Source of the DNA: Sedimentisphaerales bacterium
GTDB taxonomy: Bacteria; Planctomycetota; Phycisphaerae; Sedimentisphaerales; Anaerobacaceae
DNA: 35,857 nt
NCBI GenBank assembly: GCA_037381725.1
Contig: JARRQQ010000001.1
Span: forward strand, 1-35,857
Direction of reading: 5' to 3'
A program made the position numbers and the translations under genes. Below the pieces are notes generated by a model, which ran no database searches, was not told where the DNA came from, and saw only the letters and a list, made by a program, of their open reading frames with translations. Below, one piece after another: positions 23,243-35,857 of the stretch; position 1 is the stretch's first letter, and each line of letters opens with the position of its first letter.

Positions 23243-24022
23243 CTACAGCGTCCTTCTTCTGCGCAGCCAACTGACGATACCCGCGCCGAGACTACCCAAG
23301 AAAATGGCTCCGGGAGCGGGCACAGCCGCGGTCGGCTCGACCTCAAACGTGCCGGAGAATAGCGCCCAGCCGGAGGCGGACGAATACTCCGACCCGTCAA
23401 AGACAGACAACTTGCTGTGCGTCCGCACGAGATCCAAGTCGGCCTGGCTCTCAGCGTAGAGGCTGCTGTCGAAGCCCGCCGTCGCGAACGCGGAGATGGG
23501 GTGGTCGACCAGGTGCTGGCGAAGGTCGTAGTACCCGTCGCTCCCGGCGAGGGCCTCAGCGTATCCCTCGCCGGCGTTGTCCAGCCACGATACTCCGCTA
23601 GAGCTCATCTGCCCTTTCATTCCCGAGGAGAATTGGCCTTGGTAGGTGACTGCAGTTGTGTAGACCATCCAACCCACCGTGTACTTCTCGCCGGGGACCA
23701 GGTCGGTATAGGTCCGGCTCATCTGCCAGTCGATGGTCTGTTGTGAATCGCCGGTTAGCCCTGAGATGTTTATTTCCTGCTCCCACGTATCGACCCAAGT
23801 CGAATCGCAGTTGGAAATGCCGAAGGAGGCGTAGTAGTAGCCGGTGTCATCCACGTCCAGGTCTTCGGCTGAGACGGTTCCCGAAACATCAAAGGTGAAA
23901 GTAACCGGGCCGGTCGGCGCCGTTGGCGAAGCCGAGGCGAGATTCTGCCCCAGAGCCAGCAAAAGGCAAAGTGACGTTGTGGTGAACAGAGCGGCCGATT
24001 TCATTTGCTGTTGACGGGTCAT
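23243..24022 (-). CDS. PEP-CTERM sorting-domain secreted protein, function unknown
   Basis: N-terminal signal peptide. C-terminus VPAPGAIFLGSLGAGIVSWLRRRRTL matches the PEP-CTERM variant motif + TM helix + Arg cluster. The second Met at 24004 is an alternative start. Confidence 0.8.
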   Translation of the reverse strand: MTRQQQMKSAALFTTTSLCLLLALGQNLASASPTAPTGPVTFTFDVSGTVSAEDLDVDDTGYYYASFGISNCDSTWVDTWEQEINISGLTGDSQQTIDWQMSRTYTDLVPGEKYTVGWMVYTTAVTYQGQFSSGMKGQMSSSGVSWLDNAGEGYAEALAGSDGYYDLRQHLVDHPISAFATAGFDSSLYAESQADLDLVRTHSKLSVFDGSEYSSASGWALFSGTFEVEPTAAVPAPGAIFLGSLGAGIVSWLRRRRTL

Positions 24023-24381: not shown

Positions 24382-24807
24382 CTACTGGAGCTTGCTTTGC
24401 AGTTCGGTAATGGCCTGCTGAGCCTGCTGCAACTGGCTTTGCAGATCGCTGACCTTCTGCGTCTCGGCCTTTAGCTCTTTGCTGAGGTTTTCCATCAGGG
24501 TCTGAGCCGTCTGGGCCTCGGCCAGCGCCGCCTCGCGCAATTTGGCCAGCTCGTCCTCGCGCTGTTGCAGCGCGTCGCGGATTTTCATGAATTCATCCAC
24601 CTGTTGCTGCAACTGGCCCGGCACGCCCGCCTCAGCGGTCTGGGCTTTCTGAAGGGCCGCCACCCGTGACTGGAGATAGTCTCTCTCACGCTCGATCTGC
24701 TCCAGCCTCGCCTTCGTGCGTGTAAACTCGGCTCTGTCGCAGCAGCCCGTCAGGACCGGGGAAACGAACAGCGCGATCAGGCACGCAAGAACCACCTTCT
24801 GTTTCAT
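24382..24807 (-). CDS. Coiled-coil lipoprotein, function unknown
   Basis: Signal peptide ending in lipobox VLTGC. The rest is a Q/E/A/L-rich heptad-like helix. 141 aa. Confidence 0.7.
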   Translation of the reverse strand: MKQKVVLACLIALFVSPVLTGCCDRAEFTRTKARLEQIERERDYLQSRVAALQKAQTAEAGVPGQLQQQVDEFMKIRDALQQREDELAKLREAALAEAQTAQTLMENLSKELKAETQKVSDLQSQLQQAQQAITELQSKLQ

Positions 24808-24956: not shown

Positions 24957-25402
24957 ACCACCACTCCTGACTTCATGATAACAAATTGAACTCGAAAATC
25001 AAGGAAAAAAGCTCGCGCCGGGCGACCTGTCCTTCTGCTTTTGAGCTTCCGGGTTGGCTCAGAAGAAGGGCCCCCACACCCAGGAAAGGAGGTCTGAAGA
25101 CTATAGGGGCCCGGTGGACTGTGATCTCACACAGGTACGAATACAAGTTAGGTATACGATAATCGCCGAACCGGGTCAATTGTGGTGACTACGTATTTTC
25201 CTTGAGAAACACCCAGGAAGAGTCCATTTGGCTGTCTTTGAAAATGGATAACATGGGTATCTTAGGAAAGCTATCTTCACAACTAACAGACGACAAGAAA
25301 AGGACTTATGGAGAATCTGCTAATTCTGGGTTAGGCTGATTTCGAGTGGTTCAACGGCCGGGAGACTTTTCAAAAGTTCGAGCGATTCGCGAAAAATCTG
25401 GT

Positions 25403-26182
25403 ATGATCCGCGTAGTGAAAAGGGGATTTGCTGTGGCAAAGACGAACGGACAACCGGCGGGCGGCACGATTTGCAGCGGCCGCCGGGAATCGGGCGCGGC
25501 GGTGGTAGCGGCCTTTACATTGATCGAGCTGTTGGTCGTGATCGCCATTATCGCGTTGCTGATGGGCATCTTGTTCCCCGTCCTGCGCAGGGCACGTGAG
25601 CAGGGCAAAGACGTCGTCTGCCGGAATAATCTGCGTCAGATCGGCTTGGCCGCCAATTTCTATGCCGGTGACAACGGCCTATTCATTCCCCGCTCAGCAG
25701 AATGGGGCGGTGATATCAAACCCTGGTTCCAGCTTTTCATGCCTTACCTGGCACAAAAGGCGATCAACGATGACTATCGCACCGTCAAGATATTTCGCTG
25801 CCCCAGCTATCCAGATAAGGAGCAGACGGTGTGTTTCGTTGTGAACGGCTGGAGTAATGAGAACAACAACGGTTGGGGCATGCAGCGCACACCGACGAAG
25901 CTGACCGATTGTCGCCGCCCCGGCCGGACACTCTACCTCGCGGATAACGAGGACGGTCCCTGGCGGACGATTATCAAGATGGCCACCGACCGGGACGTCA
26001 CGCGGTGCGACGTTTTCCGCCCGAGTCACCTGCCCGATTCGGACAATCAAGACATCACCAACGGCCGGCGCGTCGCACGCGCCCGGCACAAAACGGGCTG
26101 CAACGTGCTTTATCTCGACTGGCACGTCGCCTGGATGGCCGCCGACGACATGACCCCCGAAATGTGGCGATTCGACGATTAA
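25403..26182 (+). CDS. DUF1559-type protein with prepilin-type N-terminal cleavage/methylation domain (type II secretion pseudopilin-like)
   Basis: [25 protein letters not shown] class-III signal region. C-terminal [14 protein letters not shown] corresponds to the H-X9-DG motif but with DW. Start uncertain: GTG 25346, ATG 25403, or GTG 25433 after AAAGGGGA. Confidence 0.8.
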
Positions 26183-26661: not shown

Positions 26662-27885
26662 CTATGGATTCCCTTGTGCGTAGCGGTTCCTGCCATCAGT
26701 CGTCTGCTTTAGAAACAGATAGTAGAGCCGGCCTTCCTGGTACGTTTGTCCGGCCAGCTCTCCGGCCACGTCGCCCACGCCCATATACACGTCGCTGCGC
26801 CCCGGCGCGCGGATCGCGCCGCCGGCGTCCTGGTCCAGGGCGAAGCCGCTATAGGGCACACTGACGGCCCGTCCTCCAACGGCGTGCGGCAAGGTGGTCG
26901 TGATGAACGTCAGGGATCCCCGCGGGAAGATCGACTTATCCGTGGCAATCGTCCTATAAGCTGTTACCGGCTCGTTCAGGCAACCTCGCGGCGAACCGTC
27001 CTCTTGCTTCTGAAAGAATACGTATCGTGCGTTTCGCCGGATGTACGTGCTGACCTGGTCTTTGTGTCGCTTGAAATAGTCGATCATGGAGGCCAGGCTG
27101 ATGTGGTCGGCGGGAATCTTGCCGTCGTTGACGAGGGCCTCTGCGACGCTTTGATATTCACGTCCATTGCTGGCGGCGTAGCCCACAGTGGTGACTTTAC
27201 TGTTGGGTAGCCTGAGCTTGGCCGAACCCTGCACGTGGGCGATGTACGCCTCGAACGGGTCGCTCAACCAGATGAGTTCTTTGCCCCTGAGCATTCTTGC
27301 GCCCTCAATGACGGCTCTGGACGGGTAGGCGGTGATTTGTCCGTCAGGCATACGCCGGCCGAGTATCTCGCCGTCCGGCGCTTTGACCAGGTCGTCCGGC
27401 GGCTTGTATAGCGGGTAGCAGAAACGCTCCGTGCGTTGCATGGAGCCGTCGAAGATGGGCGTGTAGTAACCCGTGAATAGCACGGTGCCCTGATCGTCGC
27501 ACCCAATGGACGTGTACACGTCGAACTTCTGCCGAATGGCGAGGTTTAGCTCGGCGCCCGTCATGCCGGAATCCAACATCTGGGCGAAGGATTTCAGGCT
27601 CTCCAGGGCGGTGTCGTGAGTGATCTCGCCGACGGGATAGAACTGCCGGCTCGACGGCTTCTGGAGGTAGTTGATGCTTCGGTGGACGGCGGTTTTCAGC
27701 CCGGCCAGGTCGCGACACGCCGCGGAAAAGTCCGGAATTTCGGCGGGGTTTGTGATCTTTCGCAAGGCCAGTTGCCCGGGCGGCAAAGGCCTGTCGTAGG
27801 CCTTCTGAGACTTGGCCGGCGGACTCTTGCATCCCGAAAAGACGACAATCAGACACGATACAGCGAGCAAAATCCTTTTTCTCAT
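26662..27885 (-). CDS. mltA: Membrane-bound lytic murein transglycosylase A (MltA family, with 3D domain), lipoprotein
   Basis: ATG at 27885 gives MRKRILLAVSCLIVVFSGC (lipobox). MltA-domain segments GYYTPIFDGS and YPLYKPPDDLV. 3D-domain segments ATDKSIFPRGSL and LDQDAGGAIRAPGRSDVYMG. Confidence 0.88.
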   Translation of the reverse strand: MRKRILLAVSCLIVVFSGCKSPPAKSQKAYDRPLPPGQLALRKITNPAEIPDFSAACRDLAGLKTAVHRSINYLQKPSSRQFYPVGEITHDTALESLKSFAQMLDSGMTGAELNLAIRQKFDVYTSIGCDDQGTVLFTGYYTPIFDGSMQRTERFCYPLYKPPDDLVKAPDGEILGRRMPDGQITAYPSRAVIEGARMLRGKELIWLSDPFEAYIAHVQGSAKLRLPNSKVTTVGYAASNGREYQSVAEALVNDGKIPADHISLASMIDYFKRHKDQVSTYIRRNARYVFFQKQEDGSPRGCLNEPVTAYRTIATDKSIFPRGSLTFITTTLPHAVGGRAVSVPYSGFALDQDAGGAIRAPGRSDVYMGVGDVAGELAGQTYQEGRLYYLFLKQTTDGRNRYAQGNP

Positions 27886-28088
27886 TCTAATTCCAAGCTC
27901 CAAAACGTCCTGAACCGGCGTTCATTCCCGCACGCCCGCTTCTGGCACGGCCGCAACAGGTCACTATCGGATCTCCGGGCGTTTGTACCGCCCGCGCCTT
28001 GATACTTTTATCGGCGCACGGGCTGGCTTTTTTGGAGTCAAAACGTCTCGCATGGTCCAAAAAAGTCCGAAGCCCGATTGAATTGTCC

Positions 28089-28116
28089 TTGACAAAAATA
28101 CGATAACTGCGATAAT
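28089..28116 (+). promoter_or_regulatory. Near-consensus sigma70-type promoter: TTGACA - 16 nt - GATAAT
   Basis: TTGACA at 28089-28094 and GATAAT at 28111-28116, read directly. Lies about 230 nt upstream of the first giant secreted-protein gene. Confidence 0.45.
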
Positions 28117-28344: not shown

Positions 28345-31300
28345 ATGTCTCGAAAGATCTGTTGGCTGACCGTGGTCTTGATGGTCGGATTCGTCGGAAT
28401 TGATCAGAGCCGCGCTCAAGACGTCGTCAATCTATTGCGAAACGGCGGCTTCGAGGACGGCGTGATGACGCCATGGGGCATATATGATAATACCGGCGGC
28501 GGCGCCCGCGGAGAGGTGATTACGGACGACCCGATCGAGGGGGACTATTGTTTGCACATTGTGGTTCCGCAAGCGAATGCGAACTATTGGGATGTCGGCT
28601 TGAACCAGGGAGGCCTGGTTTTTGAATCCGGCAAGAAGTACACGCTTTCGGCCTGGCTCAAGTGCGACAGCGGCACGCTGGACGTCAGTTACAAACCGGA
28701 ACTCGCCCAGGACCCATGGACGGGATTCGGCGCGCTGGACTTCACGATCACTGAGGAATGGGACGAATACAGCACGACGACTCCCGTGATGACCTCGGAC
28801 GTTAGCCCGGGGGAAGTGGTGTTCCATATAGGTTTTACCCCCGGCGAGCTTTGGGTCGATGGCGTCCGATGGTATGAAGGCGACTATGTAGCCCCTCCGC
28901 CTGTGACGGTCGAGGAACGGGCCGCGGCGGGCGATCCGAGTCCGGCCGATGGGGCGACGAACGTGCCGAATGATACGCCGCTGAGTTGGACGCCGGGTGA
29001 GTTCGCGGCGACGCACGACGTGTACCTCGGAACGAGTTTCGAGGACGTCAACAACGCCACCCGGACCAATCCGATGAACGTACTGGTCAGCAAAGACCTG
29101 CTTTTGACGAAATACAAGCTCCACGACGCTCTTGAATTCGGCCAGACCTACTATTGGCGAATCGACGAGGTGAATGCGCCGCCGGATTCGACCGTCTACA
29201 AGGGCGCCGTGTGGAGCTTCACCGTCGAGCCTTATGCGTTCGAGATAACCAATATCCAGGCGACAGCTAGCTCGTCCGCTATAGATCAAGGTCCCGAAAA
29301 CACCATTAACGGATCGGGTCTGAACTCCCGCGATCAGCACTCGACCATCGGGACGGACATGTGGCTCAGCGACGCGGCCGGACCACAGCCGACCTGGATA
29401 CAATATGAGTTCGACAAGGCCTATGCCTTACTTGAAATGTGGGTGTGGAACTCGAACCAGATGCTCGAGTCCGTGGTCGGTATCGGGGCCAAGGACGTGA
29501 CAATTGAATACTCGCTGGACGGCGAGAACTGGACCACGCTGGGCGAGCAGGAATTTGCCCAGGCGACGGGCACGCCGACCTACACACACAATACGACCGT
29601 CGATATGAGCGGTGTGGTCGCCAAGTACGTCCGGCTGACCATCACTACGAATTGGCAGGGATTATTGCCTCAGTATGGTTTGAGCGAAGTGCGGTTCACG
29701 TACATCCCCGTGCAGGCCAGCGATCCCGTGCCCTCCTCCGGTGCCTTGAACGTGCCTCTGGACGTCGTTCTGGATTGGCGCGGCGGGCGCGAGGCGGCTT
29801 CGCACGAGGTCTATCTCAGCACCGACGAGCAGGCGGTCATCGACGGTACGGCGCCTGCAACCACGGTGAACGATACCGAATATCAGGTGGGGCCGCTTGA
29901 TTATGGACAGAGGTACTACTGGAAAGTCAACGAGATCAGCGAGGATGGCAGCTTTTATGAAGGCGACGTCTGGCGGTTCTCGACGACCGAGATGAAGGCG
30001 GTGGACGATTTCGAGAGCTACACCGACGACGACGCGGCTGGCCAGGCGATCTGGCAAACGTGGATCGACGGCTTCGGCGTTCCTGAGAATGGCTCACAGG
30101 TCGGGTACCTCGTTCCGCCGTATGCCGAACGAACGATCGTTCATGGCGGCAAACAATCCATGCCGTTCTTCTACGATCATGGTCAAGGATCCACCGCGCG
30201 CTATTCCGAGGCGGAGCGGACTTTTGACGATCCGATGGACTGGACCCAGTCAGGCATCGAGCAATTGTCGCTGTGGTTCCGGGGCAATCCGGGCTCGGCG
30301 GGCAGCTTTGTGGAGAGTCCTGCGGGGACTTTCACCATGACGGGTTCCGGAACGGATATTTGGGACACGGCCGATCAGTTCCACTTCGCCTACAAAATGC
30401 TGACGGGGGCCGGCTCGATTGTTGCTCGCGTCCAGAGCGTAACCGATACGGACCCGTGGGCCAAGGCCGGCGTGATGATCCGCGAGACGCTGGATCCCGG
30501 GTCGAAGAACGCTTTTGCAACCATCACACCCGAGAACGGGGTTGCCTCTCAGGGGCGGACAGAAACGGGGGGCACGAGCTTCAGCACGAATCAGACGGGC
30601 GTCGCCGCGCCATACTGGGTGAAGCTGGAGCGTGACATCTCCGGGCGCTTCACGGTCTCCCACTCGGCGAACGGGACGAACTGGACCCCGGTCAACAATG
30701 CCACGGGAACCAATATCCAGATGAGCTCGACCGTCTACATCGGCCTAGCGGTGACCAGCCACAACGCCAGTGAGACGTGCGAGGCGGTATTCACGGATGT
30801 CACGATGACCGGTTCGGTCAGTGGAGAGTGGACGGATCAGGATATCGGAATCGCCACGAACGACGCCGAGCCGCTGTACGTTGGTCTGGTGGATACCGCG
30901 GGCCACATTGGCACGGTGGCCAGTGAAGACCCGGCCGCTACCCAGATTGACACTTGGACGCAGTGGAGTATTGACCTGGCTCAATTCGCCGACCAGGGCG
31001 TGAATCTGGCCGCCGTTCAGAACCTGATCCTGGGCGTAGGCGATAGAAACACTCCGACCGCGGGCGGCTCGGGAACGCTGTACTTCGATGATATCGGGGT
31101 CGGACGGGCCTTGCCGCCGCCGGAGTTCGTGAATCTGCTGGTCAATGGCGGCTTCGAGGACGGCGTGCTCGATCCGTGGTACATATATGACAATACAGGT
31201 GGCGGCGCGACCGCAGAAGTGGTATCAGAGGATCCGGTGGAAGGCAGCTTGTGTTTGCACGTTATCGTGCCGACAGTGAATGCCAACTTCTGGGACGTCG

Positions 31301-32124
31301 GGATAAGCCAGCCGGACTTGGTTTTTCAAGCCGGGAAGAAGTACACGCTTTCGGCCTGGCTGAAGTGTGCCAGCGGGACGCTCGATATCAATTTCAAACC
31401 GGAACTGGGTGCCGATCCCTACACGGGATATGGCGACCAGGTCTTGACCATGACGGACGAATGGGCGGAGTATCATATCACGACGCCCGTCTTCACGGAG
31501 GACGTGAGTCCGGGCACAGCCACCTTCCACGTCGGCTTCACCGCGACTGAGTTTTGGATGGACGACGTCAAGTTTTACGAAGGTGACTACACCATACCGG
31601 GTGGTCTCGACGCGGTTGTGGTCGGCGATTTCGAGGGCGGTCTTGACGGCTGGCAGGAACGGGACGCCACGCTGTCACTCAGTACGACGGGGGCAACGCT
31701 CGGCACGCAGGCACTGCAGGTGGACGGTCCCGGCGATTGGCACATCGACGCCTTAGTGGATATCAGGTCGCACAGCGCCTTGCTGGGAACCGCTGGTGCG
31801 ATGGTCGTGGCGGACGTGACCGCGTTCGACGCCGATCTGACCACGACGTGGATGAACATGGAGATGATTATCAACGGGCAGAACAACGATGATAACGGCG
31901 CGAACAACAACGTCGGCTGGCAATCGCTCGGCGCGCAGAGCATCGAGCGTGACGGGCAGCCCCACACGTACACGTGGGCGGTTCCGGAATCGCTCAGCAC
32001 GGTGATTGCGGGCACGGACGACAACATCGCGTGGTTCGAGCTGGCGCTGGTGTCGAACCTGGACGCGGCATCGGTGACGAAGTTCTACATTGATAACATC
32101 CGTCTGGTCGCCGGAGATCAGTAA
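28345..32124 (+). CDS. 1259-aa secreted multi-module protein with no recognisable catalytic domain. Order: CBM4/9/22-like module, repeat module, F5/8 type C (discoidin) domain, repeat module, beta-sandwich domain with nested ConA-like (DUF1349-type) insert, second CBM copy, C-terminal beta-sandwich
   Basis: Signal peptide ...DQSRA/QD. NGGFEDG...W CBM signature occurs twice. Discoidin-like stretch runs from ATASSS...TINGSG to YVRLTIT...GLSEVRF. ConA-like stretch includes GSGTDIWDTADQFHFAYK...WAKAGVMIRE...YWVKLER...YIGLAVTSHN. Strong SD AAGGAGGA lies 5 nt before the ATG. Confidence 0.9.
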   Translation: MSRKICWLTVVLMVGFVGIDQSRAQDVVNLLRNGGFEDGVMTPWGIYDNTGGGARGEVITDDPIEGDYCLHIVVPQANANYWDVGLNQGGLVFESGKKYTLSAWLKCDSGTLDVSYKPELAQDPWTGFGALDFTITEEWDEYSTTTPVMTSDVSPGEVVFHIGFTPGELWVDGVRWYEGDYVAPPPVTVEERAAAGDPSPADGATNVPNDTPLSWTPGEFAATHDVYLGTSFEDVNNATRTNPMNVLVSKDLLLTKYKLHDALEFGQTYYWRIDEVNAPPDSTVYKGAVWSFTVEPYAFEITNIQATASSSAIDQGPENTINGSGLNSRDQHSTIGTDMWLSDAAGPQPTWIQYEFDKAYALLEMWVWNSNQMLESVVGIGAKDVTIEYSLDGENWTTLGEQEFAQATGTPTYTHNTTVDMSGVVAKYVRLTITTNWQGLLPQYGLSEVRFTYIPVQASDPVPSSGALNVPLDVVLDWRGGREAASHEVYLSTDEQAVIDGTAPATTVNDTEYQVGPLDYGQRYYWKVNEISEDGSFYEGDVWRFSTTEMKAVDDFESYTDDDAAGQAIWQTWIDGFGVPENGSQVGYLVPPYAERTIVHGGKQSMPFFYDHGQGSTARYSEAERTFDDPMDWTQSGIEQLSLWFRGNPGSAGSFVESPAGTFTMTGSGTDIWDTADQFHFAYKMLTGAGSIVARVQSVTDTDPWAKAGVMIRETLDPGSKNAFATITPENGVASQGRTETGGTSFSTNQTGVAAPYWVKLERDISGRFTVSHSANGTNWTPVNNATGTNIQMSSTVYIGLAVTSHNASETCEAVFTDVTMTGSVSGEWTDQDIGIATNDAEPLYVGLVDTAGHIGTVASEDPAATQIDTWTQWSIDLAQFADQGVNLAAVQNLILGVGDRNTPTAGGSGTLYFDDIGVGRALPPPEFVNLLVNGGFEDGVLDPWYIYDNTGGGATAEVVSEDPVEGSLCLHVIVPTVNANFWDVGISQPDLVFQAGKKYTLSAWLKCASGTLDINFKPELGADPYTGYGDQVLTMTDEWAEYHITTPVFTEDVSPGTATFHVGFTATEFWMDDVKFYEGDYTIPGGLDAVVVGDFEGGLDGWQERDATLSLSTTGATLGTQALQVDGPGDWHIDALVDIRSHSALLGTAGAMVVADVTAFDADLTTTWMNMEMIINGQNNDDNGANNNVGWQSLGAQSIERDGQPHTYTWAVPESLSTVIAGTDDNIAWFELALVSNLDAASVTKFYIDNIRLVAGDQ
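28423..28887 (+). repeat. Copy 1 of an intragenic 465-nt (155-aa) duplicated CBM-like module
   Basis: Aligns without gaps to 31126-31590. By my hand count about two thirds of residues are identical, including the identical nucleotide run AAGAAGTACACGCTTTCGGCCTGGCT. Confidence 0.85.
31126..31590 (+). repeat. Copy 2 of the intragenic duplicated CBM-like module
   Basis: FVNLLVNGGFEDGVLDPW...FYEGDY aligns end to end with VVNLLRNGGFEDGVMTPW...WYEGDY of copy 1. Confidence 0.85.
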
Positions 32125-32287
32125 GGGCAGCTCTGGGTATGTAGACCTCGCGGGGGGTATCCACAAGGATGATGTTGGATCTCGCAGAGGTCAGGGGCCT
32201 ATGCCTCTCGCAAGGGGTGTCTCAGGCGGCTTGCTAAGGTGCAAGCCCCGTTCAGCGTGAATGCATTATCTCTGAAGGAGGACTACT

Positions 32288-34867
32288 ATGTGCGGAAGAA
32301 GAGCACTTCCAGCCGCCCTTGGTCTTCTATTGGGCGCGGCTGCGGCGAATGTGCGTGCCGCCGATCCGAATCTGATGGGTTGGTGGAGATTCAACGACGG
32401 CTCAGGCACGGTGGCGATTGACTCTTCGGGTCACGACCGTCACGGCGTTCTCGTCGATGGTCCTCAATGGGTTGCGGGCATCCACGGCGGCGCGCTTGCG
32501 TTCGCCGATGGCAGCCATGTAGCCGTGCCGGGCTACGACGGCATATTAGGCTCGCAAGCCCGCACGAACGCAGCGTGGGTCAACGTGACCAACACGTCGG
32601 CGAGCATCATCACGTGGGGGCCGAGCGGGTCCGGAACGAAGTGGATTGTGCGAACGCACAACGATCCCGCGAATCTCCGCGTCGAGTGCGGCCAGGGAAA
32701 TACATGGGGGACCACCGACCTTGCCGACGGCGAGTGGCACCACGTGGCGGCCGTCCTCGAAGACGATGGGTCACCGGACATTAGCGAGGTTAAGCTCTAC
32801 GTGGACGGCGAGTTGGACCCCATTGCCGGAGGGACGCCGAGAGCAATCAACACCTCCAGCGGCGGCGAGCTCCGAATCGCCTACGATTTGAACAATACGC
32901 CGAGAGTTTTTACGGGCATGATGGACGATGTCCGCATGTCTGACCGCGCGCTGACGGCCGAGGAGATTCAGGCGATTATGACGGACCCGGGCCTGGTCAG
33001 GCACGCCATGGGGCCGGACCCAACCGACGGTGCCGTGATCGACGAGACGTGGTATATGCTGAGCTGGACGCCGGGCGATCTGGCCGCCTCACATCAGGTT
33101 TACATCAGCGAGAATTTCGACGACGTCAATGAAGGCCGGGTCGAGCCGGTGTCTTCGGCGTCGTCTTATCTTGTGATCGGTCTTGGCGGGCCATACCCAA
33201 GCGGGCTGACACCAGGGGTAAGGTACTATTGGCGTGTCGATGAGGTTAATGAAGCCGAGCCGGATAGCCCCTGGAGGGGTAACGTCTGGAGCTTCAGTGT
33301 TCGACCAACGACCACGTGGAGTCCGGTCCCGGCCGATGGCGCCAGGTTTGTGGCGACCGACGCGGTCCTGAGCTGGGACCCCGGCGTGGGAGCGGTCGCC
33401 TTCTACGTCTATTTCGGCGACACTTTCGATGACGTGAACAACGCGACGGGCGCGCCTTTCACTACCGAGACGACGTACGATCCGGGCCCCCTGGAAGCTG
33501 GCAAGACCTACTATTGGCGGGTAGACGGGTCCGATTTCCAGACCCTCCAACGGGGCAAGGTCTGGAGTTTCACGACCGCCGGCGGGGGAGGCGGAATCCT
33601 GGGTGAGTATTTCAACAACATGGGCGCAAGCGGCCAGCCCGTCCTGACTCGGATCGATCAGAACGTTGATTTCGACTTCGGCGACGGCTCGCCCGAAGCC
33701 GGCGTCGTTGACGAAGACGCTTTCTCAGCCCGTTGGCGTGGCGAGATAGAGGCTGCGTTCTCCGAGACGTATACGTTCTACACGCGGACGAATGACGGTT
33801 CGAGACTGTGGCTCGACGACAAATTGATTGTAGACAAGTGGGTGTGGGTCAACAGGGTCGTCGATACACGCAGCACGCCGGTTGTGCTTGTCGCCGGGCA
33901 GCGATACAGCATCCGGATGGAATTCTTCAACGAGGACACGGAGGCCGAGGCGCACCTGTTGTGGGTGAGCGCCAGTCAGCCCAAGGGGATCGTCCCGCAG
34001 GCGGCGCTGTCCCTGCCTTTACAGGCGGGCAGCCCGCATCCGCCCAACGGGCAGACGGGCGTAAAGCTGATACCCCCTCTTCGCTGGGTTCCAGGAGTGT
34101 ACGCCGCCTCACACGACGTGTACTTCGGCACCGATGAACAGGCGGTCAGAGACGCCGGCAGAAACTCGCCCGAGTTTAAGGGCACTAAGGCGTTTGGCGA
34201 TGAAAACTACGATCCCGGCAAGCTCGCCAGACACACGACATACTATTGGCGCGTCGATGAGGTCAACGACCTCCATCCTGATAGCCCCTGGGTTGGCAAT
34301 CTCTGGAGCTTTACAACGGGTGCTTTCCTGGTCGTGGACGACTTCGAGGACTATACCGACGATGACACGGGCGGCGAGGCGATCTGGCAACGCTGGATCG
34401 ATGGTTTCGGTGTTGCGAACAACGGCTCGCAAGTCGGGTATCTGCTTCCTCCGTACGCCGAGCAGACGATTGTCCACAGCGGTCGCCAATCCATGCCGAT
34501 CCTTTACGAGAACGTGAACGGTGTGACCAATTCCGAGGTGGAACTGACGTTGACCTATCCGCGCGACTGGACCGAGCACGGCGTGAGCACGTTGACGCTC
34601 TGGTTCCGGGGTGATGCGGCTAATGCCGCTGAGCCGATGTACGTTGCTCTTGACGGCAATGCGATAGTCGCGCAGGAGAATCCCGCCGCGGCGCAGGCGA
34701 TCTCCTGGACGCAGTGGAACATCGACTTGGAGACGTTCGCCGATCTGGGTGAGGATCTGGCGAACGTGAACAGTATCGCGATTGGCTTGGGCACGAAGGC
34801 CGACGGCGCAGGTCCAGGCGGCTCGGGCACGATCTATATCGACGACATTCGGCTGTATCGGCCGTAG
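32288..34867 (+). CDS. 859-aa secreted multi-module protein. Order: LamG (Laminin_G_3-like) domain, two repeat modules, PA14 domain, third repeat module, C-terminal beta-sandwich domain shared with the upstream gene
   Basis: Signal peptide ...ANVRA/AD. LamG stretch runs LMGWWRFNDGSG...GEWHHVAAV...DDVRMSDRALTAEEIQ. PA14-like stretch runs GILGEYFNN...FSARWRGEI...YTFYTRTNDGSRLWLDD...EAHLLW. C-terminal DDFEDYTDDD...GSGTIYIDDIRLY. SD AAGGAGGA lies 5 nt before the ATG. Confidence 0.9.
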   Translation: MCGRRALPAALGLLLGAAAANVRAADPNLMGWWRFNDGSGTVAIDSSGHDRHGVLVDGPQWVAGIHGGALAFADGSHVAVPGYDGILGSQARTNAAWVNVTNTSASIITWGPSGSGTKWIVRTHNDPANLRVECGQGNTWGTTDLADGEWHHVAAVLEDDGSPDISEVKLYVDGELDPIAGGTPRAINTSSGGELRIAYDLNNTPRVFTGMMDDVRMSDRALTAEEIQAIMTDPGLVRHAMGPDPTDGAVIDETWYMLSWTPGDLAASHQVYISENFDDVNEGRVEPVSSASSYLVIGLGGPYPSGLTPGVRYYWRVDEVNEAEPDSPWRGNVWSFSVRPTTTWSPVPADGARFVATDAVLSWDPGVGAVAFYVYFGDTFDDVNNATGAPFTTETTYDPGPLEAGKTYYWRVDGSDFQTLQRGKVWSFTTAGGGGGILGEYFNNMGASGQPVLTRIDQNVDFDFGDGSPEAGVVDEDAFSARWRGEIEAAFSETYTFYTRTNDGSRLWLDDKLIVDKWVWVNRVVDTRSTPVVLVAGQRYSIRMEFFNEDTEAEAHLLWVSASQPKGIVPQAALSLPLQAGSPHPPNGQTGVKLIPPLRWVPGVYAASHDVYFGTDEQAVRDAGRNSPEFKGTKAFGDENYDPGKLARHTTYYWRVDEVNDLHPDSPWVGNLWSFTTGAFLVVDDFEDYTDDDTGGEAIWQRWIDGFGVANNGSQVGYLLPPYAEQTIVHSGRQSMPILYENVNGVTNSEVELTLTYPRDWTEHGVSTLTLWFRGDAANAAEPMYVALDGNAIVAQENPAAAQAISWTQWNIDLETFADLGEDLANVNSIAIGLGTKADGAGPGGSGTIYIDDIRLYRP

Positions 34868-34889
34868 GGGCAGGCCCATGTGCCTGCCC
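34868..34889 (+). terminator. GC-rich hairpin GGGCAGGC-ccatgt-GCCTGCCC immediately after the stop codon (weak terminator or attenuator candidate; no U-tract)
   Basis: 8-bp perfect stem read directly. It is followed by TGGGCAACC rather than a T-run. Confidence 0.3.
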
Positions 34890-34954
34890 TGGGCAACCAC
34901 GTGGGGGTGCCCCTATCCAGCACGGAGGTTCGACCTTTTTGAAGGAGGACTATT

Positions 34955-35857
34955 ATGTTTCAAAGAGTGACGTGTTTAGTCGCAATCATTTTGACGGCGG
35001 GACTTGTCTCGTGGGTCCCGGCCGCGGACGTGCACCTTATGGGCCGGTGGACGCTTGATGGTCACGCCCAGGATACATCCGGCAATGACCGTAATGGCAC
35101 ACTCAACGGCACACCGAGCTTTGGCCCCGGGGTCTATGGCGAGGCGATGGAGTTCGACGGGGATGACTTTGTGAGCATAACGGACTTCAAAGGCGTCCTG
35201 GGCACGAATCCCTGGAGCGTCACCGCCTGGATCAAGACCTCGAATGTCGATGACCACAGATGCGTTATAAGCTGGGGCACTGCCTCCAATGGTCAGAGAA
35301 TCGAACTGCGGACAATGAGCGGCACGGGTATCTTGCGGGCCAATCACGGTGCCGGAAATGTGAACACCAATACCGCTTTGACGGACGGTGAATGGCACCA
35401 CATAGCGCTCACGTCGATAGAAGGTGCTTACTGCCAGTATCCGGACATGACCATCTACGTTGACGGTCAGGATGATACCGTGCCCTCCACGGATACGGAT
35501 CCGATGCTCGACATTGTTGCGGATGTCGATCTGGGAATAGGCTACCGTGCCACACATGACGACAGGTATTGGGTCGGGTCCATTGATGAAGTCCGTATGT
35601 ACGACAAAGTGCTGACACAGCAAGAGATTCAGCAGATCATGAACGAAGGGGGCGAACCCTATCCGTATGCTTATGATCCCAGCCCGGCCGACGGCGCCTT
35701 GCATGAAGATGCTTGGGTGAACCTCTCGTGGTCGCCGGGAGGCAGTGCGGTCTCGCACGATGTCTATTTGGGCGATCGTTTCAATGACGTCAATGACGGC
35801 GCCCGGGACTCCGAGGTCTTCCGAGGCAACCAGACGGCAACCTTTTACGTGGCCGGC
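34955..35857 (+). CDS. Third paralogous secreted LamG-domain protein, 3' end outside window (absent from the supplied ORF track because it has no stop in the window)
   Basis: Hand translation gives MFQRVTCLVAIILTAGLVSWVPAADVHLMGRWTLDGHAQDTSGNDRNGTLNG...GEWHHIALT...IDEVRMYDKVLTQQEIQQIM...DPSPADGALHEDAWVNLSWSPGGSAVSHDVYLG. 301 codons are open to the window edge. Same SD and spacing as the two upstream genes. Confidence 0.85.
   Translation, partial: MFQRVTCLVAIILTAGLVSWVPAADVHLMGRWTLDGHAQDTSGNDRNGTLNGTPSFGPGVYGEAMEFDGDDFVSITDFKGVLGTNPWSVTAWIKTSNVDDHRCVISWGTASNGQRIELRTMSGTGILRANHGAGNVNTNTALTDGEWHHIALTSIEGAYCQYPDMTIYVDGQDDTVPSTDTDPMLDIVADVDLGIGYRATHDDRYWVGSIDEVRMYDKVLTQQEIQQIMNEGGEPYPYAYDPSPADGALHEDAWVNLSWSPGGSAVSHDVYLGDRFNDVNDGARDSEVFRGNQTATFYVAG

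Follow-up and report, generated by a model that had tools for sequence, protein, structure and literature searches.

Non-catalytic proteins built from several carbohydrate-binding modules (CBMs) or lectin domains are a known kind of protein. Among them, the surface glycan-binding proteins (SGBPs) of the SusE/SusF type in Bacteroidota and the CBM-only proteins of cellulolytic bacteria are exported, consist of tandem beta-sandwich binding modules and belong to polysaccharide degraders. The SGBPs are lipid-anchored and are encoded in polysaccharide utilisation loci, beside transporters and enzymes. In the cellulosome, many paralogs carry differing heads on one conserved C-terminal module, the Ca-binding dockerin. 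In sediments and digesters, the Sedimentisphaerales play a major part in the anaerobic degradation of polysaccharides. This account concerns three consecutive genes from a Sedimentisphaerales bacterium and the large protein family to which they belong. The genes lie on the + strand at the end of a 35,857-nt stretch of DNA (contig JARRQQ010000001.1 of assembly GCA_037381725.1; the window), where a listing of open reading frames (ORFs) placed gene 1 at 28345..32124 (1259 aa), gene 2 at 32288..34867 (859 aa) and gene 3 at 34955..35857 (at least 301 aa, its 3' end open at the contig end). These positions agree with an earlier annotation made from the letters alone (the original prediction), which had called the proteins giant; at 859-1259 aa, they are large, not giant.

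The reading favoured here, held with somewhat more confidence than doubt, is that the three proteins are exported, non-catalytic members of a glycan-capture repertoire, in which a variable head sets the specificity and a conserved tail has a shared role, probably retention at the cell envelope or docking on it. The family resembles the SGBPs and the CBM-only proteins in being exported, non-catalytic and composed of tandem beta-sandwich binding modules in a polysaccharide degrader. Unlike SGBPs, the trio has no lipobox and no conserved enzyme or transporter neighbour, and the family has more than 100 dispersed paralogs with a tail of fibronectin type III (FN3) modules and a so-called DDFE domain that is conserved family-wide. 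As in the cellulosome, many paralogs bear differing heads in front of a single conserved C-terminal module, a pattern suggestive of a common docking partner. Unlike in the cellulosome, no dockerin or cohesin was found in the trio genes with Pfam and no scaffoldin was identified; docking is here a proposal, and the tail domain is a CBM-like jelly-roll of 180 aa, as opposed to a dockerin.

Head, stalk and tail across the family

Copies were counted in the genome (789 contigs, 5.9 Mb, 56% GC) with hidden Markov models built on the window's own modules. The FN3-like module, also called the YYWR module, was found in 126 ORFs (295 modules), the DDFE domain in 106, LamG in 97, a DUF1349-like domain in 32, PA14 in 11 and F5/8 type C (F5/8C) in 6. 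The family as a whole comprises about 142 ORFs, which make up 4.3% of the genome bases. Its canonical plan is a signal peptide, a LamG head, two FN3 modules, a variable slot and the DDFE domain, where the slot is occupied by FN3 alone or by PA14, F5/8C or a second LamG, each followed by FN3. The head is usually LamG, though not always, and in some members, gene 1 among them, a DUF1349-like ConA domain is nested within the DDFE domain. In 88 cases the DDFE domain ends 15 residues or fewer from the stop codon. Among the 113 family ORFs whose 5' end is intact, 82 have signal-peptide-like N-termini and only 2 a lipobox-like motif.

The divergence of the modules was expressed as medians of pairwise comparisons among 22 canonical paralogs. 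The LamG heads were 29% identical, with proportions of synonymous (pS) and non-synonymous (pN) differences of 0.75 and 0.51, respectively. The corresponding values were 62-68% identity, pS 0.67-0.71 and pN 0.20-0.24 for the FN3 modules and 71% identity, pS 0.68 and pN 0.17 for the DDFE tail, the non-synonymous divergence thus being about three times faster in the heads. Since all modules are close to saturated with synonymous differences, the paralogs are old. On these figures, purifying selection at the protein level has preserved the stalk and the tail, while the head has diversified. Gene conversion or recent duplication was considered as the cause of the conserved tail and rejected, with pS at 0.67-0.75 in all modules and no pair of paralogs below 0.3.

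The same tail was also found behind other heads, namely CBM9, PKD, the proprotein-convertase P-domain and molybdopterin oxidoreductase, and behind several heads with no Pfam match. Because quite different heads share it, the DDFE tail behaves as a generic module.

Two of these unusual members deserve mention in their own right. An ORF at C208:2438-3943 (-) encodes Oxidored_molyb and Mo-co_dimer domains (sulfite-oxidase-type) and then a dockerin/EF-hand-like segment, all upstream of the family module(s); the Dockerin_1 match is sub-threshold (21.8 bits, cut-off 22.9 bits). Judged by these domains, this member would place an exported redox enzyme on the scaffold of the family. A further one, on contig C259, combines PKD with an unannotated region of about 400 aa, which contains a GWSTG motif resembling the nucleophile elbow of alpha/beta-hydrolases.

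More than 5,700 homologs of gene 2 exist in databases, and those that are named come from metagenome-assembled genomes (MAGs) of Sedimentisphaerales, Phycisphaerae or Planctomycetota, where they are labelled only LamG-like, PA14-containing or hypothetical. The DDFE profile matched 5,132 cluster representatives among 1.84 billion proteins. In sampled genomes, the domain was present in 15 of 20 from the same order and in 37 of the 41 from the same taxonomic family, in 1 to more than 100 copies. The protein family is confined to one Sedimentisphaerales-type order, apart from 2 of about 130 other genomes of the class. Literature searches on LamG, DUF1559 and Sedimentisphaerales returned no prior description of it.

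Runs of family genes on the same strand are common in the genome (18 pairs, 9 trios, 4 quartets and 1 sextet), and arrays of up to six genes occur in related MAGs. The original prediction had taken the trio for a locally duplicated family. This was rejected, because for all three genes the closest paralogs were found on other contigs: C209, C4 and C189 for gene 1 (54-57%), C296 for gene 2 (51%) and C459 for gene 3 (42%), whereas the modules shared by genes 1 and 2 are only 41-48% identical. Tandem runs are routine among the roughly 142 ORFs of the family.

Modules and folds of the three proteins

The borders of the modules were set by pairwise and fragment BLAST. Gene 2 has the canonical architecture with PA14 in the variable slot, its order being signal peptide, LamG, FN3, FN3, PA14, FN3 and DDFE. 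The LamG head spans 32360..33001 (aa 25-238; Laminin_G_3, PF13385, 78.6 bits, E 7e-22) and is followed by FN3-like modules 1 and 2 at 33002..33580 (aa 239-341 and 343-431), PA14 at 33593..33979 (aa 436-564; PF07691, 81.9 bits against a gathering cut-off of 24 bits, E 5e-23), FN3-like module 3 at 34019..34321 (aa 578-678) and the C-terminal DDFE domain at 34319..34864 (aa 678-859), a CBM11/30/22-like beta-jelly-roll for which Pfam has no model. In gene 3, a signal peptide precedes a LamG domain at 35027-35668 (Laminin_G_3, 92.4 bits, E 4e-26), after which an FN3-like module begins. Both Laminin_G_3 scores are far above the 27.6-bit gathering cut-off, so the LamG N-termini predicted for genes 2 and 3 were recovered.

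Gene 1 is an atypical member in that its DDFE domain is succeeded by two additional modules of the CBM type. Its order is signal peptide, CBM4_9, FN3, F5/8C, FN3, DDFE with a nested DUF1349-like insert, CBM4_9 and a CBM22-like domain. Copy A of CBM4_9 lies at 28417..28902 (aa 25-186) and copy B at 31120..31605 (aa 926-1087); Pfam PF02018 matched the two stretches with 115.2 bits (gathering cut-off 25.9 bits, E 3.6e-33). The copies are 62-69% identical (63% over the full-length alignment), their next best relative elsewhere in the genome is only 31% identical, and by this comparison they are an internal duplication. FN3-like modules 1 and 2 are at 28921..29235 (aa 193-297) and 29707..29988 (aa 455-548), on either side of the F5/8C (discoidin) domain at 29257..29655 (aa 305-437; PF00754, 49.7 bits against 28.2 bits, E 5e-13). 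The DDFE domain is split into an N-terminal half at 29983..30309 (aa 547-655; 48% identity to gene 2 residues 566-780) and a C-terminal half at 30805..31119 (aa 821-925; 41% identity to gene 2 residues 749-858). Between the halves is the ConA-type insert at 30307..30819 (aa 655-825), and the protein ends in a CBM22/16/11-like beta-jelly-roll at 31606..32121 (aa 1088-1259), again without a Pfam model. When gene 1 was compared with its 81%-identical ortholog in the closest relative (L001), dN/dS was 0.14, a value indicating that the gene is under purifying selection.

The original prediction had named CBM4/9, F5/8C, PA14 and LamG domains, and all of these scored above the Pfam gathering cut-offs. 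Its ConA-like module fared less well; the DUF1349-like insert is present, but its match to DUF1349 (PF07081) reached 25.7 bits (E 1.1e-5), below the gathering cut-off of 32.4 bits. The insert is about 70% identical among paralogs, and DUF1349 was the sole family that it matched (5 of 9 paralog copies, best E 1.6e-7); when the gene 1 insert was excised and searched alone, no Pfam match was obtained at E up to 0.01. It is likely a distant relative of DUF1349, and not a member by the curated threshold. The sharing of modules between the genes also held: YYWR modules occur in all three (two in gene 1, three in gene 2 and one, partial, in gene 3), and the DDFE domain, with its motif DDFE...GSGTxYxDDI, is contiguous in gene 2 and interrupted by the insert in gene 1.

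A profile of the six YYWR modules matched titin FN3 with E 4.4e-7 and more titin/Fn3-like entries weakly (E 1e-3 to 0.06). In Pfam, the modules gave only weak matches to Ig_Rha78A_N, and homologs of gene 2 carry Pur_ac_phosph_N annotations. On these profile matches, the YYWR module is probably a divergent FN3 spacer.

Structure prediction by module, which the original prediction had proposed as a check, folded the two un-annotated stretches confidently as CBM-like beta-jelly-rolls. The AlphaFold model of the DDFE domain, made from 25 paralogs and orthologs, had a predicted local distance difference test (pLDDT) score of 89 and a predicted template-modelling (pTM) score of 0.87. With Foldseek, it was found to resemble CBM11, CBM30, CBM61 and CBM22 at a template-modelling (TM) score of about 0.5-0.6 and 10-19% identity; sequence and profile searches of the PDB gave no solved relative. 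Its invariant residues, numbered within gene 2 residues 678-859, are E10, Y12, W26, D28, Q57, Y63, N65, W84, Y108, W130, W133, D175 and D176. The model of the C-terminal domain of gene 1 (pLDDT 96, pTM 0.90) resembled CBM22, CBM16, CBM11 and CBM4 at TM 0.55-0.70, and at least 107 database proteins contain the gene 1 domain, as one to four tandem copies at the N- or the C-terminus. It was considered as a relative of the DDFE domain and rejected, with an hhalign probability of 3.5% and no profile relationship.

Both domains thus have the beta-jelly-roll of CBM11, CBM30, CBM22 and CBM16 (TM 0.5-0.7), and they share with these families the motifs (D/G)FE in the first strand and (I/V)DD(I/V) in the last strand. 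Unlike them, the two domains are only 10-20% identical to these CBMs, are without a Pfam model and are not appended to enzymes. No sequence or profile match to solved CBMs was obtained for either, and by the sequence criterion of CAZy neither belongs to CBM11, CBM22, CBM30 or CBM16, the likeness being at the level of the fold only.

The LamG head of gene 2 matched PDB entry 4qvs with E 4.6e-8. A profile built from 17 diverse heads matched 87 PDB sequences at E up to 0.01, and all 60 of those listed are recognition domains. These include the 4qvs LamG domain of an S-layer protein, the non-catalytic C-terminal domain of the arabinanase AbnA (5hon), the LamG modules of pappalysin, lectin-like receptor-binding domains of toxins, pentraxins, neurexin LNS and sialidase CBM40; the matches to 4qvs, AbnA, pentraxins and CBM40 had E 1e-32 to 1e-6. 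Unlike those LamG-type domains, the head of the present family is N-terminal on a non-enzymatic protein and occurs in dozens of variants per genome. When the heads were aligned, the framework of the sandwich was conserved and the central loops were hypervariable and rich in indels. Such a pattern would be expected of a diversified ligand-binding surface and is the opposite of a conserved active site.

No catalytic family was found in genes 1-3 with Pfam or NCBIfam, and the enzyme matches in NCBIfam were only to the CBM and PA14 parts of enzymes, far below the cut-off. Together with the PDB profiles and the two AlphaFold models, these searches bear out the claim that there is no recognisable catalytic domain. 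All residue ranges of the three proteins could be assigned to predicted binding or spacer folds. The N-termini of genes 1-3, judged by inspection and a simple heuristic, resemble Sec signal peptides in which the cleavage site is of the A-x-A type and a lipobox is lacking, in keeping with the signal peptides that had been predicted for all three.

The absence of a C-terminal anchor, also claimed earlier, stands as far as known anchors are concerned. Pfam and NCBIfam gave no PEP-CTERM, LPXTG, dockerin, autotransporter, type IX secretion system C-terminal domain or S-layer homology (SLH) domain in genes 1 and 2, whose C-termini are both modelled as CBM-like jelly-rolls. What had been overlooked is that the DDFE domain forms the strongly conserved C-terminal part of nearly all family members; it could itself be a retention or docking module. 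A secreted protein of 259 aa is encoded elsewhere in the window (23243-24022, -); it has no Pfam hit, and its C-terminus carries a PEP-CTERM-like motif. On account of this protein, PEP-CTERM does appear to be in use in the organism, though not in the present family.

The locus and its neighbours

The window spans the whole contig (C1 of the assembly), and the truncation of gene 3 is therefore an artefact of assembly. When public metagenome contigs were scanned for exact matches, no extension of gene 3 was obtained; in marsh-metagenome contigs, all assemblies stop at the same repeated FN3 module. The source organism was detected in marsh and salt-marsh metagenomes.

The spacers are as short as had been described, 163 bp between genes 1 and 2 and 87 bp between genes 2 and 3, and the ribosome-binding site AAGGAGGA is common to all three genes. 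The promoter that had been placed before gene 1 was recovered as a near-consensus sigma-70-type promoter-like site at 28089..28116 (+), which consists of TTGACA, 16 nt and TG-GATAAT and lies 229 nt 5' of the ATG. It is a consensus match only (11/12), and 3 promoter-like sites were observed in the region as against 2.4 expected from shuffles.

Directly 3' of the gene 2 stop codon, in the spacer before gene 3, lies a palindromic hairpin, GGGCAGGC-N6-GCCTGCCC (34868..34889), similar to repetitive extragenic palindromic (REP) elements. In marsh metagenomes, contig depth at this hairpin is 5-25x the local level, and many contigs branch there. The high-depth 35-bp element after gene 2 was considered as a family-specific 3' element, and this was rejected, as the hairpin is REP-like and genome-wide, with about 48 loci, and only 5 of its 96 strand-wise matches closely follow a family gene.

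Upstream of gene 1 are genes for a coiled-coil lipoprotein with a lipobox-like LTGC at its N-terminus (24382-24807, -), a DUF1559 pseudopilin (25346-26182, +) and MltA (26662-27903, -). The closest relative, L001, keeps these three genes in the same order at 79-85% identity, and prepilin-type genes near gene-1-type genes were also seen in L005, L008, L010 and L077. At orthologous loci on long contigs, no conserved enzyme or transporter neighbour was found, although a prepilin-type gene recurs upstream of gene-1-type genes.

The genome holds about 85 DUF1559/N_methyl pseudopilin-like ORFs and, in 5.9 Mb, 11 secretin (PF00263) genes above the curated cut-off (for example, C76:8825-9316, C137:883-1359, C57:8539-9045 and C5:23320-23802). 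This complement of the type II secretion or type IV pilus kind is unusually large. A pseudopilin-like ORF is also present on 4 of the 11 secretin contigs; no family genes were found on the secretin contigs. Adjacency of family genes to DUF1559 genes, within 5 kb, stood at 17% as compared with 8%, an enrichment of only about two-fold against an imperfect null. Across 41 genomes of the taxonomic family, the copy numbers of DDFE and DUF1559 were correlated (Spearman rho 0.74), and a partial correlation of 0.40 (p = 0.009) remained after genome size was removed; for DDFE and sulfatase counts in the same genomes, the partial r was -0.20 and not significant. All of these are candidate counts from a crude first look, uncorrected for phylogeny, and for this reason the co-variation of DDFE with DUF1559 is treated as a lead and not as a result.

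Role of the tail and meaning of the repertoire

The three proteins would be Sec-exported, modular, non-catalytic binders of glycans or other ligands. The head, together with the slot module where there is one, may set the ligand specificity, the ligand probably being a glycan, and the FN3 modules would serve as a spacer stalk. The DDFE tail would perform a function common to all members, most likely the binding of a shared cell-envelope partner or glycan, by which the protein would be kept at the surface or in the periplasm. A cell might thereby display a broad set of polysaccharide-capture proteins. The trio itself is just one among the numerous tandem runs of family genes, and its members may be transcribed together from the promoter-like site that precedes gene 1. 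Envelope retention or docking is favoured because more than 100 old paralogs, some with heads that do not bind glycans, keep the same tail. As the tail also tolerates a loop insertion and C-terminal extensions, it is better seen as a binding domain than as a cleaved terminal sorting signal.

Several points weigh against this reading. The DDFE domain is not always last: in gene 1 and about 10% of the members it precedes further modules, and there are database proteins with internal or tandem copies of it. It is therefore not a strict C-terminal sorting signal. Its predicted fold is that of substrate-binding CBMs, and it could bind a common substrate and not the envelope. In addition, the ConA-like and LamG folds include enzyme families, and a cryptic activity is conceivable.

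The main rival explanation is that the proteins are freely secreted or belong to the matrix, with the DDFE domain acting as a substrate CBM for one abundant polymer and the heads adding avidity or a second specificity. In that case, they would be soluble glycan scavengers, cross-linkers or adhesins of biofilms or particles, and not receptors retained by the cell. The nearest folds of the domain are indeed the type-B, substrate-binding CBM11, CBM30, CBM22 and CBM61, and neither a lipobox nor a transmembrane segment, PEP-CTERM or other anchor was found; the tandem and internal copies also suit such a role. However, it is hard to explain in this way why more than 100 old paralogs have a tail that is about 70% identical and heads at 29%, and the tail on non-glycan heads such as the molybdopterin oxidoreductase fits generic docking or localisation better. 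Free secretion is accordingly regarded as unlikely, at roughly one chance in a handful.

A bolder form of the favoured reading is that the tail docks all members on one envelope structure, possibly fibres of DUF1559 pseudopilins, and that the more than 100 heads capture polymers for uptake. The lineage would then extrude its expanded DUF1559 fibres through its many secretins. This version is speculative and, taken as a whole, rather improbable. If it were true, the pseudopilin-docked repertoire would be a planctomycete counterpart of the dockerin-cohesin or Sus-type systems, built from unrelated parts.

Two other explanations are less likely than free secretion. The modules might form a structural surface coat or mediate cell-cell adhesion, in the manner of S-layers or aggregation factors, by assembling with one another or by attaching to algal, cyanobacterial or particle surfaces, as opposed to capturing nutrients. 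PA14 and F5/8C are frequent in adhesins, FN3 stalks are typical of surface proteins, and the best solved relative of the LamG head is from an S-layer domain-containing protein. Against this, neither SLH nor any other domain for S-layer anchoring was detected with Pfam, a recognition repertoire accounts better for more than 100 diversified heads than a repetitive coat does, and the Sedimentisphaerales-type lineage has been described as rich in polysaccharide-degrading enzymes (PMC11131199); a coat is held to be quite improbable. Least probable of all, and given very little weight, is a cryptic enzyme, in which a new polysaccharide lyase or hydrolase would reside in the LamG head or in the DUF1349-like insert, with the CBMs as its appendages, for although the ConA-like jelly-roll superfamily has enzyme families, the insert is well conserved among paralogs and one paralog head gave a very weak 3-keto-disaccharide-hydrolase-like match (E 0.009), this stands against the lack of any catalytic family in Pfam or NCBIfam, the recognition domains that make up all 60 listed of the 87 PDB matches, the hypervariable, indel-rich LamG loops and the fact that DUF1349 has no known activity.

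Taken singly, the Pfam domains are ordinary, and the trio is unremarkable for its lineage; the interest lies in the family and not in the three genes. In the searchable literature, no description was found of the family itself, of the two CBM-like domains without a Pfam model, of the combination of a selected constant tail with a diversified head, or of the co-expansion with pseudopilins. The DDFE domain and the C-terminal domain of gene 1 are, on their predicted folds, two candidate new CBM families. About 4% of a genome is devoted to proteins that databases call 'LamG domain-containing' or 'hypothetical', and the family offers a testable hypothesis of how Sedimentisphaerales recognise many polymers and of what the pseudopilin expansions of planctomycetes might serve.

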